Part shown: piece after piece, positions 6,001-9,000 of the stretch | Layout: each line of letters begins with the position of its first letter | Position numbering within the stretch: position 1 is the stretch's first letter | Assembly (NCBI RefSeq): GCF_013167455.1 | Contig: NZ_CP038328.1 | Strand: one strand, 5' to 3' | Length of the DNA: 64,000 nt | From: Escherichia coli O157:H7 | Lineage (GTDB): Bacteria; Pseudomonadota; Gammaproteobacteria; Enterobacterales; Enterobacteriaceae | Position numbers: made by a program

Positions 6001-9000
6001 TGCGCCTGACAGGCGGAACTTACAGGTCAGTCTGCCGCCCTGTGTCAGCAGGGTAATTGCGTCATCCACCGGATGCGTCAGGGACCAGGTTTTATTGCTC
6101 TGCCTGGTGATCTTAAATACACCATCTGACAACTGAATTCCGCCATCCTTAATGCTCCAGCCCTGCGCAGCAGCCTCTCCGGCTGCCGGCAGCAGGGAGA
6201 TTGTGCGAACGGACGTATCTGCAGACGGACCCGATGGCGTGTTGCCGCCGGGCGAGGGTTTGATTTCCGGTGCCTTACCACTGATGAAGGCTGAGGTGCG
6301 CCCGGCTGCGTTCAGAATAGCGGTTGCCATACGATCCGGAATAATGCTCCTGCGCGCCCATGAACTGAAATGTGTCGGGCGGTTTGATGATACCTGGTTT
6401 CCATTCGTTCTCGATGCCGCACCGTAATATCCTGATGCCGGAATATCCGGATCTTCTGCCGGCGCGTTAGTGGCGGTATTGACGCCGTTACCGTCTGTCA
6501 TGAAGGGCACAAAATAAACGCCCTCACTCTCCCTGTTTTTGTACGCCCCGTAAATGGTGTTGTACTGGGTGCCGTAGGTATTTTTCCAGTAATACGTCGT
6601 GTCACCACAAATCCACGGCACATCTGCAGCACTGCCACCATGGCACTGCGCGTTAAACACGGAGAGGTCAGCACGAAACTGTGCCAGCATGGCTGTAAAC
6701 AGCGCAGGTTGCTGTGCGTGGGTGGCGGCGCTCATGTCAAACTCTCCCTGCATCCAGCACACCGCCAGCAACACATTTTTCGGGTTCTTCTGTAATGCAG
6801 CTTTAGTGCGCGCAATCAGGTCCTGATATAACGGTTTACCCACACCCCAGCGCGCCGAATCCTGGCTGGCCCCCGCGTCCGCACTGAATGTCCCCTCCGC
6901 GCCCTGGGTGAATGCCGAACCACCACGACAGCATGGTACCAGCAGGATCCCCGCGTTATTCGGGATATACGGAAGCAGTTTTTTGGCAATATGTAAGCCC
7001 TGGCCGACACAGCCGTACTGCCCTTTGCTCAGGTCTGCCTTCGGATGATTCAGCGTACTCATATCCTGCACATCATGCAGGCAGTGGTCGGCCGGAATAA
7101 TATCGTTATATCTGCAGGCAGCCCCACCCGGCGTAACTGTACTGCGGCGCGCCAGCTGTTTAATGCGCGGATCCGGAGCATCGTATGAATCCGGCAGCGG
7201 AAGCCCTTCACCGTAAGCCATGGCATTGGACTGCCCGGCCAGTACGATGACGTAGTACCAATCCGGCTCAGTTGCACCACTGACCACCACATCACCTTCT
7301 GCTGTAATCACCTGCATCAGGGTATAAGGGGTTATGGCCACCGGACTACCAAACGGCTGCCAGCCCTCTTTCAGTTTGTGTGTCAGCTTTTCCGCAAGGT
7401 CTGACGGCGACGCCGCCCTGACAACATCATAATGTTTAAATGTCATTATTCCTCCCCTTTCCGGGATTTTCCTCAACAGTTGCGGGCCACGGTCCGGCCA
7501 CAAGGAGAATCAAAAGAGGAGAACCGCAGCCCGCAAAACGAAAAAGGCCGCGCAGTTGCGCAGCCTTATAAACCCTGGTTAAAATCCACACGATAAAAAT
7601 GACAATGCAAGTATCTCATGCTGTTGCCCGAACCCACTCGGGCTTTTTTTTGCATGTAAAAAGGCTCCTGCGATGAGAAGCCTGGATATATGCCTAATCT
7701 CTGTATACAGCATGATGCCGGGTGCCTCCCGGTGAATTCTGCAATGACCAGACAGAATCCGCAACTTGCCTATACAATACGCAACCAAACATCTGTCATT
7801 ATGCCCCGCCGCTCAGGGGGATTCATCATGCAGGATTTTTTTAACAAACGCTCAGCATGTCAGGCAACAGTCAACTGCCTGAATTGTGAGGCATTTAACA
7901 TTTCACTGTCCGGTGTCTTTCCTGTAATAAAAAGCCCGCAAAAGAGAGTCAGGGCAGATAAGTGTGGTGTGGTGCGTTGTACTGGATTCGAACCAGTGAC
8001 CGATTGCTTAGAAGGCAATTGCTCTGTCCGGCTGAGCTAACAACGCAGAATACCGATAATGGACCGCCACCGGGGACTCCGAATCTCGCACAGGGTGACG
8101 TTCTTTCCTGATGAGCTAGTGGCGGTTGGTGGCCCTTGCTGGATTTGAACCAGCGACCTGGCGATTATGAGTCGCTCGCTCTCACCGCTGAGCTAAAGGG
8201 CCGATTGCTGAATAATAACGACGCATGATTAACTCCGCAATCTCATCCGTTACGAATGATTAAATCCTGTACTTCCCGCACCGTCTGCTCAAAACGTTCA
8301 GTCTCCAGTTCAACGCCAGTTGCACGACGTCCCAGCGCCATCGCTGCTTTCACTGTCGACCCCGACCCCATGAAGAAATCTGCAACCAGGTCTCCCGGAC
8401 GACTGCTTGCGCTGATTATCTGCTGCAACATTTCTGCCGGTTTTTCGCACGGATGTTTCCCTGGATAGTACTGCACCGGTTTATACGTCCACACATCGGT
8501 GTACGGCACCTGCACCGTCACACCGAAATACCGCCGCAGATGCTTATATTCACTCTGCAGCTCCGCATACTGTCGGTTCAGAGAGGCATACGTATCCACC
8601 AGCTGGTGGTGGGGCTTTTCCAGTTCACCCCGCTGATGCTTCTCTTCTGCCACCCGGGCAAACAGTGCCTGTAATTTCAGATAATCGCTTTCGTTCGGCA
8701 GCTGCCACTGACCGGCACTGAACCAGTGCGACACCATGTTTTTCTTTCCTGTGGCATCTGCAATCTGTTTTGCCGTTATCCCCAGGACAGCGCGCGCATC
8801 ACGAAAGTAAGCAATCAGCGGGGCCATCACATGCTGTTTCAGTGTCCTACCCTTCGCCTCATACCCGGCATCTTTCGGACGATACGGCCCCTGATAATGC
8901 TCTGCGAACAGAATGCGCTCTGTGGCGGGGAAATACGCCCGCAGGCTTTCCTTGTTGCACCCGTTCCAGCGTCCGGACGGCTTTGCCCAGATGATATGGT

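Follow-up and report, generated by a model that had tools for sequence, protein, structure and literature searches.

The GC-rich hairpin and run of eight T residues on the plus strand of the window (the whole analysed stretch of 64,000 nucleotides from Escherichia coli O157:H7, contig NZ_CP038328.1) is, we are confident, the Rho-independent terminator that ends EcOnc03, a short RNA of the lambdoid prophage Sp9 that binds Hfq and probably acts in trans. The terminator and its RNA are already known, since EcOnc03 was experimentally detected in 2014. The sRNA gene to which this "orphan" terminator is assigned here has been published and verified by experiment, and is omitted by genome annotation pipelines. 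The coordinates of the features are listed in Table 1.

Table 1. Features of the EcOnc03 region of prophage Sp9, in window coordinates.
Feature	Position	Strand	Basis
Intrinsic terminator of EcOnc03	7626-7651	+	sequence, consensus scan, fold; 3' end of published EcOnc03
EcOnc03 sRNA gene	7592-7651	+	published 51-nt match, Rfam AgvB match, CLASH read start
5' variable seed of EcOnc03	7592-7609	+	
Family core GUAUCUCAUGC	7611-7621	+	
EcOnc03-specific segment GCUGUUGCCC	7620-7629	+	
EcOnc03 promoter (predicted)	7556-7585	+	-35-like TTGCGC 7556-7561, 18-bp spacer, -10 TAAAAT 7580-7585; alignment of paralogues
Second terminator-like hairpin (AAGGCTGCGCAACTGCGCGGCCTT + T-run)	7535-7567	-	terminator scan: 10 pairs, 7 GC
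STnc100-family sRNA, convergent partner; published EcOnc28, homologue of EcOnc27/sRNA103	7652-7860	-	Rfam STnc100; Table S2 of PMC4104026
Terminator of STnc100-like sRNA	7683-7654	-	terminator scan
Empty moron/toxin insertion point	7890-7928	.	blastn break points 7889 (Sp5), 7903 (BP-4795), 7929 (tRNA flank)
tRNA-Arg (UCU), argO3	7970-8046	-	
tRNA, CAU anticodon; ileZ3 (tRNA-Ile) in Sakai annotation	8127-8202	-	
DUF1737/SASA sialate O-acetylesterase, NanS-p type, ECs_1781	5593-7446	-	Pfam DUF1737, SASA, DUF6645
DNA methyltransferase ECs_1780, between Q gene and tRNAs	8243-9301	-	Pfam N6_N4_Mtase, 2.4e-43
Late antiterminator Q, ECs_1778	9891-10433	-	Pfam DUF1133, Phage_antitermQ

Results

The hairpin consists of GCCCGA (7626-7631), the loop ACCCAC (7632-7637) and TCGGGC (7638-7643), directly followed by T8 (7644-7651), and in the consensus scan it appeared with a 6-bp stem that has five GC pairs, a loop of 6 nt and a tail rich in T. 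A loose terminator scan of the surrounding 6 kb found 13 sites against 5.9 +/- 2.5 in shuffled sequences, which is only a mild enrichment. When the criteria were strict (a perfect stem of 6 bp or more, five or more GC pairs in it, a loop of 3-8 nt and, directly after, seven or more T), just two sites were found on both strands of the whole 64 kb, at 7626 and 44080; this is far above chance, the mean expected from first-order Markov randomisations being 0.005. The minimum-free-energy structure of the 60-nt RNA 7592-7651 also contains the terminator hairpin (-13.9 kcal/mol, z = -2.57). Read on the minus strand, the hairpin at 7626-7643 carries no U tail, and termination is therefore expected in one direction only; a bidirectional terminator for late transcription was ruled out for the same reason.

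The published RNA ends agree with this position. In one CLASH chimera, ...TCGGGCTTTT is fused to mntH, which puts a 3' end at 7647, and both the published EcOnc03 sequence and the CLASH chimeras stop after four U of the U-run. Published chimeric reads span GATAAAAATG to ...TCGGGCTTTT, and therefore the terminator works in vivo. A GC-rich hairpin, a U-run directly after it and RNA 3' ends within the U-run, which together define an intrinsic terminator, are all found at 7626-7651. The initial annotation, which noted a strong plus-strand terminator opposite to the surrounding genes that could end a short RNA, is borne out in both respects, as all the neighbouring genes lie on the minus strand and the short RNA is EcOnc03.

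The window sequence at 7597-7647 matches the published 51-nt EcOnc03 sequence exactly (Fig. S4 of PMC4104026). The surrounding region, 3781-11781, is 99.988% identical to Sakai Sp9 (1770500-1778500), and the published coordinates of EcOnc03, 1774497-1774550(-), map to this site when a genome-version offset of about 133 bp is allowed. The CLASH reads start at GATAAAAATG, which is position 7592, and the length of the RNA counted from G7592 is 56-60 nt. Tree et al. (2014, Mol Cell 55:199; PMC4104026) described EcOnc03 in E. coli O157:H7 Sakai as a primary transcript of Sp9 that is bound and stabilised by Hfq and is third in abundance among the unannotated RNAs in Hfq-CRAC. In the same study, northern blots showed species of 56, about 54 and 51 nt that were destabilised in the delta-hfq strain, and the 5' ends were found to be triphosphorylated by RLM-RACE. 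These expression data come from strain Sakai, whose EcOnc03 sequence is identical to that in the window. The RefSeq annotations of Sakai and other O157 genomes leave the site empty; in some phage records it is covered by hypothetical proteins.

The initial annotation had proposed a search for a plus-strand promoter 50-200 bp upstream, and a predicted promoter was indeed found 41-70 bp upstream of the hairpin. The read-supported start G7592 lies 7 nt past its -10 element. The block GCGCAGTTGCGCAGCCT.AT.AA.CCTGGTTAAAAT is invariant in the alignment of Sp9, Sp5, Sp10 and BP-4795, and TAAAAT was found in every IMG/VR copy examined. Only 3 of the 6 positions of the -35 element agree with the consensus, which explains why the generic promoter scan missed this promoter; on the plus strand the scan's one hit was an unrelated site that lies downstream of the terminator, at 7749-7778. 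The EcOnc03 promoter came to light solely through the alignment of paralogues. The second terminator-like hairpin holds the EcOnc03 -35 element on the opposite strand, upstream of the esterase gene, and is conserved in Sp5, Sp10 and BP-4795; it would terminate minus-strand transcription.

The minus-strand order of the region is Q, methylase, tRNAs, slot, sRNA pair and esterase, with EcOnc03 on the plus strand; late transcription, whose direction is set by Q, runs opposite to EcOnc03. The esterase gene ECs_1781 is the first late gene downstream of the sRNA pair. This placement is that of the AgvB/AsxR/EcOnc03 class: the lambdoid moron site downstream of PR'/Q, between the slot and the esterase/lysis genes, on the anti-late strand. 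Convergent pairing with a second sRNA of the STnc100/EcOnc27 type, Hfq-binding in the definition of the class, was likewise found for EcOnc03. The Rfam STnc100 model matched the partner over its full length with 175.2 bits, against a gathering score of 47, and the partner abuts the T8 run of EcOnc03, their 3' ends lying at 7652 and 7651.

The initial annotation had placed the terminator inside an empty toxin slot, which needs correction. The homology to Sp5 and BP-4795 is unbroken from the esterase gene through EcOnc03 to 7889 and 7903, respectively; these break points lie 40-46 bp from the stxB stop codons, and the upstream tRNA flank ends at 7929 according to blastn. The slot is thus just about 7890-7928, where the annotation of Sp5 has stx2AB and that of BP-4795 has stx1AB. 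The terminator lies about 240 bp outside it, downstream in the late direction, and belongs to a flanking module that toxin-carrying phages also have.

In the covariance-model search, Rfam AgvB (RF02702) matched 7591-7650 with 56.6 bits against a gathering score of 56 (E = 5.8e-08 over the whole window), a margin of 0.6 bits. Rfam AsxR (RF02703) gave 46.8 bits at EcOnc03, under its gathering score of 63; this score and a different seed ruled out identity with AsxR. EcOnc03 has the conserved 3' part of about 42 nt, made of core and terminator (7610-7651), and the variable 5' part of 14-18 nt (7592-7609) of this family. Promoter, core and terminator are invariant in the family alignments and the seed varies; it is proposed that the 5' seed of 14-18 nt sets the specificity among the AgvB/AsxR/EcOnc03 group. 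The first 120 IMG/VR copies contained three discrete seed classes, namely AgvB (67), EcOnc03 (34) and AsxR (16). The EcOnc03 unit of promoter, seed, core and terminator was found with 0-1 changes in 33-34 IMG/VR contigs among the copies listed and in 57 phage records; at least 352 E. coli records carry it at 99% identity or more. The unit occurs both with cargo (stx1 in BP-4795, stx2 in Sp5) and without it.

Discussion

Some indication of the partners of EcOnc03 is given by published interaction data. In the RNase E-CLASH data of Waters et al. (2017), EcOnc3 formed seven hybrids with ompC in two replicates and four with eptB (Table EV7), and 18 hybrids with 16S rRNA and 85 EcOnc3-mRNA rows are given; hybrids with very abundant RNAs such as ompC and 16S rRNA can be proximity artefacts. 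The CLASH partners of EcOnc3 are enriched in gene ontology terms of cation and iron transport (mntH, fieF, bfr). When the complementarity was checked, GCUGUUGCCC paired with GGGCAACAGC of ompC over 10 bp, and GUAUCUCAUGC paired perfectly with GCAUGAGAUAC across the eptB AUG over 11 bp. For the full RNA against the eptB leader, the duplexfold energy is inflated by pairing of the U tail, and the 11-bp perfect match was relied on. Pairing with ompC requires opening of the 5' arm of the terminator stem. Short AU-rich matches, such as an A-run against the U tails of sRNAs like ArcZ, would not be expected to rise above chance.

An sRNA partner of EcOnc03 was not found in the literature searched or among the rows listed of the CLASH tables; among those of the all-interactions table only an rRNA hybrid appears. 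"Anti-sRNA" is therefore a class label for EcOnc03, and this activity has been demonstrated for AgvB (against GcvB) and AsxR (against FnrS) only (PMC4104026). The literature searched contained no functional test of EcOnc03, and the search for EcOnc03/EcOnc3 in later literature yielded nothing beyond the text of the 2014 paper and the supplementary tables of 2017.

BP-4795, H-19B and dozens of Stx1a phages carry an RNA identical to EcOnc03, which in them lies about 290 bp 3' of stx1B. We tentatively suggest that EcOnc03 might be the Stx1-phage counterpart of AsxR, whose seed and GCUGUUGCCC could re-tune the envelope (ompC) and metal homeostasis (the iron and manganese genes mntH, fieF and bfr) directly or via a sponged core sRNA, and that the family core may also repress, or act in another way on, the eptB start codon. 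If this were true, the AsxR-FnrS-chuS link to haem iron for Stx2 would have its parallel in EcOnc03. Such a target shared by the whole family is discussed in none of the paper texts examined. The linkage to Stx1 phages and the CLASH partners (ompC, eptB and the metal homeostasis genes) lead to testable hypotheses.

As for the mechanism, a constitutive-looking sigma-70 promoter, TTGCGC-N18-TAAAAT, would fire opposite to the late operon; transcription starts near G7592 and stops in the T-run 7644-7651. By analogy with established Hfq-dependent sRNAs, the terminator hairpin and U tail may protect the 3' end and act as the Hfq-binding handle. The terminator would also stop the transcript short of the STnc100-like sRNA, the tRNAs and the Q region, to which it would otherwise run antisense. 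Judging from the relatives and the published CLASH hybrids, the 5' seed, GCUGUUGCCC and the core GUAUCUCAUGC would base-pair in trans with chromosomal RNAs. Candidate partners are ompC within its coding region, eptB at its start codon, mRNAs of iron and manganese homeostasis and, possibly, a core sRNA that is sponged. During lytic growth, the oncoming Q-modified polymerase would read through the hairpin, because it has no U tail on the minus strand.

Other explanations of the site were considered. One is that the RNA acts mainly in cis: it would pair with late transcripts antiterminated by Q, or with RNA that reads through from the STnc100-like sRNA, and so modulate the esterase/lysis genes or toxin output after induction. 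EcOnc03 is fully complementary to any late transcript across its gene, the two sRNA 3' ends abut, and the convergent pairing is conserved in at least eight Sakai prophages, with a purpose stated as unclear (PMC7873438). We nevertheless regard such a role as unlikely. The two sRNAs do not overlap in the lysogen and therefore form no duplex unless a terminator fails, and a purely cis-antisense role, which puts no constraint on the sequence, would hardly account for discrete and conserved classes of seed. Moreover, EcOnc03 has many trans partners in the CLASH data, and its characterised relatives work in trans on chromosomal RNAs (PMC4104026). The term antisense RNA used in the initial annotation is hence not supported, given that no gene is overlapped in the lysogen; the only transcripts to which EcOnc03 would be antisense are those that read through under Q antitermination.

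The initial annotation had also considered a relic of lost cargo, and a related view is that the terminator serves solely to block stray plus-strand transcription, the RNA being a functionless by-product. It is consistent with this that the site adjoins a moron insertion point which is empty here, and that no phenotype of EcOnc03 is reported in the literature searched; keeping antisense transcription out of the Q, tRNA and STnc100 region would also be a plausible side benefit. Such a reading is very improbable, as gene, promoter and terminator are conserved with 0-1 changes across IMG/VR, phage and E. coli records, hundreds of prophages and phages in all, whether or not cargo is present, and the seeds fall into conserved classes with no decay. 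EcOnc03 ranks with the most abundant ligands of Hfq and depends on it for stability, and two paralogues have demonstrated functions, AgvB conferring a fitness gain on EHEC in bovine rectal mucus (PMC4104026). Identity of the site with AgvB, which sponges the core sRNA GcvB, is likewise very improbable. RF02702 is the sole family that reaches its gathering score here, and promoter, core and terminator are near-identical to those of AgvB1 of Sp10, but the 0.6-bit excess rests on the shared 3' part. The seed GAUAAAAAUGACAAUGCA stands against CGAUAACAACACAACAAUAUC in AgvB, and the CACAACA mimic of GcvB targets is missing; with the bare pass of the threshold, this missing motif ruled out AgvB identity. 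Tree et al. also list the sequence separately as EcOnc03 (PMC4104026). The hairpin is thus best read as the terminator of EcOnc03.

Compared with EcOnc03 of Sp9 (named EcOnc3 in Waters et al. 2017, EMBO J 36:374), the RNA of the window is identical at 7597-7647 and shares the prophage context (99.99% over 8 kb), the strand relation, the convergent partner and the terminator. There is no detectable difference, and the two are the same gene.

A more distant parallel is IpeX of the cryptic prophage DLP12, a late-region sRNA that adjoins the moron nmpC and is reported to lower OmpC/OmpF expression, an effect that parallels the EcOnc3-ompC hybrids in CLASH. However, IpeX is not known to be related in sequence to EcOnc03, and is a longer RNA encoded on the same strand as the moron.

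AgvB of Sp10 and Sp17 has the same promoter, core AGUAUCUCAUGC and terminator stem as EcOnc03; it also lies between the moron site and the esterase gene, converges on an STnc100-type sRNA and is Hfq-dependent. Apart from the seed, the two differ in the dinucleotide before UUGCCC (UG in EcOnc03, UA in AgvB), in the loop, where EcOnc03 has C and AgvB has U, and in the tail, which is U8 in EcOnc03 and A plus U6 in AgvB. AsxR, the anti-FnrS RNA of Sp5 and 933W-type Stx2 phages, is located 282 bp 3' of stx2AB, much as the EcOnc03-type gene is found about 290 bp 3' of the toxin operon in Stx1 phages (BP-4795). It shares the architecture of EcOnc03, and its terminator hairpin and loop are identical (GCCCGAACCCACUCGGGC), whereas its seed is CGAUUAUUAAAACG as against GAUAAAAAUGACAAUGCA, and upstream of it are toxin genes, which are absent upstream of EcOnc03 in the window. 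Few cases show as clearly as the AgvB/AsxR/EcOnc03 group how prophages reprogram the post-transcriptional networks of their host.

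Identity of the terminator and its gene

On the plus strand, 7626-7651 consists of GCCCGA-ACCCAC-TCGGGC and then eight T, exactly as the initial annotation had claimed, and every flanking gene lies on the minus strand, which bears out the description of the terminator as opposite to its surroundings. A loose consensus scan gave 13 terminator sites locally against 5.9 +/- 2.5 in shuffles. As this is only about a two-fold enrichment, a strict count was made that admitted only perfect stems of 6 bp or more with no fewer than 5 GC pairs, loops of 3-8, and seven or more T immediately 3'. 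Two such sites (7626 and 44080) were found in the 64 kb with both strands scanned, against a mean of 0.005 in first-order Markov randomisations. The minus-strand reading of the hairpin at 7626-7651 has no U tail, so the terminator is unidirectional, and when the 60-nt RNA is folded, its minimum-free-energy structure includes the hairpin (z = -2.57).

A class of very short "anti-sRNAs" from prophages was described by Tree et al. (2014), who named EcOnc03, from prophage Sp9 of E. coli O157:H7 Sakai, as a third abundant member beside AgvB and AsxR, the two that have been characterised (PMC4104026). The published EcOnc03 sequence, the 51-mer AAATGACAATGCAAGTATCTCATGCTGTTGCCCGAACCCACTCGGGCTTTT (Supplementary Figure S4, PMC4104026), has a single exact occurrence in the window, at 7597-7647 (+). 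Moreover, the reverse strand of window 3781-11781 shares 99.988% identity with Sakai NC_002695.2 1770500-1778500, within the annotated Sp9, and the published coordinates 1774497-1774550 (-) map here if the genome versions are taken to be offset by about 133 bp. Judged from the exact 51-mer, the Sp9 identity and the coordinates, the hairpin is the terminator of EcOnc03. The gene is the published EcOnc03 itself, neither a new member nor a variant, and is thus real and already known. It fits the structural definition of the class: it has the expected position, is paired convergently with a second sRNA gene, and joins a variable seed to a conserved 3' part.

The Rfam models were also considered. 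AgvB (RF02702) matched 7591-7650 (+) with 56.6 bits against a gathering score of 56 in a local scan, confirmed on the whole window; this identity was rejected, as the threshold was passed by 0.6 bits only and the motif defining AgvB function is missing. AsxR (RF02703) scored 46.8 bits at the same site, below its gathering score of 63, and was rejected as well.

Hfq-CRAC placed EcOnc03 third among unannotated RNAs by recovery frequency; northern blots revealed species of 56, about 54 and 51 nt, the RNA was destabilised in a ∆hfq strain, and RLM-RACE found heterogeneous, triphosphorylated 5' ends (all PMC4104026, identical sequence). Among the RNase E-CLASH reads of Waters et al. (2017, PMC5286369) is a chimera that starts with GATAAAAATGACAATGC..., corresponding to window 7592. 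A second chimera has ...CCCACTCGGGCTTTT fused to mntH, and this junction puts the 3' end at 7647, four U into the T-run. Published data on the identical sequence establish EcOnc03 as a real, Hfq-binding RNA with its 3' end at this terminator.

Organization of the locus

Features of the window with coordinates
Feature	Position	Strand	Remarks
EcOnc12/HnrS	2568-2615	+	exact match to read sequences of this prophage sRNA
Terminator-like hairpin	7535-7567	-	directly upstream of the esterase gene (consensus scan)
EcOnc03 putative promoter	7556-7585	+	-35-like TTGCGC 7556-7561; 18-bp spacer; -10 TAAAAT 7580-7585
Mechanical ORF	7579-7788	-	69 aa, over the sRNA pair
EcOnc03 terminator	7626-7651	+	6-bp stem, 5 GC pairs, 6-nt loop, T8 (consensus scan)
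STnc100 (RF02076)	7652-7860	-	Rfam 175 bits, full length
Mechanical ORF	7690-8040	+	116 aa, over the sRNA pair
IS629/IS3-family element	12471-13468		99.9% identity with the Sp5 copy
ALIL frameshift pseudoknot	13329-13445	-	in the IS629/IS3 element
sok antitoxin RNA match	14142-14291	-	104 bits; adjoins the IS629/IS3 element
Sole other strict terminator	44080-44104	+	GGCCCCTTCTGGGGCC, then T7
Two tRNAs, three RtT repeats	50875-51609	+	pattern as at the chromosomal tyrT locus

The window was aligned with Sp5 (AsxR, Stx2), Sp10 (AgvB1) and the Stx1 phage BP-4795. An upstream block, GCGCAGTTGCGCAGCCT.AT.AA.CCTGGTTAAAAT, and the core AGTATCTCATGC at 7610-7621 are invariant in the four loci, while 7592-7609 and the dinucleotide 7622-7623 vary; the 3' part, TTGCCCGAACCCA(C/T)TCGGGC, is conserved and is followed by the T-run. 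From this conservation, the upstream block is read as the EcOnc03 promoter. G7592 lies 7 nt 3' of its -10 element, and a generic promoter scan missed the -35 element because it is weak (3/6). The -35 element is embedded in a conserved hairpin, the minus-strand face of which (7567-7535) resembles a strong second terminator. In the lysogen, transcripts that read through from the STnc100-like RNA may end at this hairpin and not reach the esterase and lysis genes.

The STnc100-like RNA, published as EcOnc28, has its own terminator at 7683-7654, so that the two sRNA genes stand tail to tail, adjoining without overlap. Two tRNAs were found further upstream of it in the Rfam scan. A homologue of EcOnc28, EcOnc27/sRNA103, lies downstream of stx2, and SNPs there have recently been tied to HUS risk (PMC12711010). 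In some phage records (BP-4795 ORF42, L128 2991-3218; YYZ-2008), a hypothetical protein is annotated over the sRNA pair, which is probably wrong.

Sp5 is homologous to the window from the esterase gene to 7889, 46 bp from the stx2B stop codon, and BP-4795 is homologous as far as 7903, 40 bp from the stx1B stop codon; the tRNA flank common to the window and Sp5 ends at 7929. These break points place the empty toxin insertion point at about 7890-7928. The terminator had been located inside this slot and proposed as a possible relic of lost cargo. It is neither in the slot nor such a relic: it is found about 240 bp past the insertion point, and the module to which it belongs is also present in toxin-carrying phages.

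Of the other features in the window, HnrS counteracts Hha/H-NS silencing according to a recent report (bioRxiv 10.1101/2025.11.27.690950). The sok match suggests a hok/sok module, and the tyrT-like pattern indicates that the window reaches past the prophage into the core genome.

Candidate targets of EcOnc03

The remaining interest of EcOnc03 lies in its targets and its linkage to Stx1 phages. Through its 5' seed, AgvB pairs with the GcvB R1 seed, which relieves the repression of dppA, and AsxR pairs with the FnrS terminator loop, which destabilises FnrS and relieves chuS repression (PMC4104026). EcOnc03 would likewise work in trans through base pairing, and its terminator and U tail would serve as stability element and Hfq handle. 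No sRNA partner for it was found in the literature searched, and its status as a true "anti-sRNA" is therefore putative.

CLASH Table EV7 lists EcOnc3 with the ompC coding region (7 unique hybrids, two replicates, FDR 0), to be read with the great abundance of ompC mRNA and rRNA in mind, and with eptB (4 hybrids); gene-ontology enrichment pointed to cation and iron transport (mntH, fieF, bfr) (PMC5286369). We regard ompC, eptB, mntH, fieF and bfr as candidate partners. EcOnc03 GCUGUUGCCC (7620-7629) was verified here to be complementary to ompC GGGCAACAGC over 10 bp; half of the terminator stem falls within this site, at which AgvB and AsxR would mismatch ompC. For eptB, the invariant family core GUAUCUCAUGC (7611-7621) forms a perfect 11-bp complementarity with GCAUGAGAUAC across the start codon (eptB locus L126, about 1416-1426). 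Hybrids with eptB were reported for all four family members, agvB1, agvB2, EcOnc2/AsxR and EcOnc3 (PMC5286369). This sharing of hybrids fits eptB as a target common to the family via that core.

Distribution and linkage to Stx1 phages

The 171-bp region was present in 869 of 5426 complete E. coli genomes, with at least 352 records at 99% identity or higher, and no annotated features lay under it in the complete genome records matched. In IMG/VR, at least 120 contigs matched the conserved core; among the matches listed, three discrete seed classes were seen (AgvB-type 67, EcOnc03-type 34, AsxR-type 16), and all of these matches had the TAAAAT element. Looser E. coli matches gave a fourth seed class, CGAUUAUAAAAAUGUAUAUCUCAUGC..., in human commensal isolates beside a tolA-like moron (L131 and L132, about 446-540). 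They also gave a recombinant from a swine isolate (L134) that combines an AgvB seed with a 3' half resembling that of EcOnc03. In E. coli O157:H7 F8798 (L002 1-3917), an identical EcOnc03 locus is followed directly downstream by an esterase gene that a Mu-like element (Mu transposase, AAA ATPase) cuts short; the sRNA pair is left intact.

A phage collection was searched with 51 nt (7576-7626) covering the -10 element, seed and core of EcOnc03. Among the 57 matching records, 54 were named Stx1 or Stx or were classical Stx1 phages, including 46 Stx1a-converting phages, H-19B, H30, BP-4795, phi-O153 and the Shigella phages 7888 and 75/02 Stx. Hardly any phages in this collection other than Stx1 and Shigella Stx phages have the EcOnc03 seed class; no reference to this linkage was found in the literature searched. 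Sakai's own Stx1 prophage, Sp15 (L129), was searched and does not carry the gene. In H-19B (L127) and many other Stx1 phages, an identical EcOnc03 is found 3' of stx1B at a distance of about 290 bp. The same holds for BP-4795 (L128 3017-3076), where the RNA is encoded on the strand opposite to stx1B, and this arrangement mirrors that of AsxR, which lies 282 bp 3' of stx2AB.
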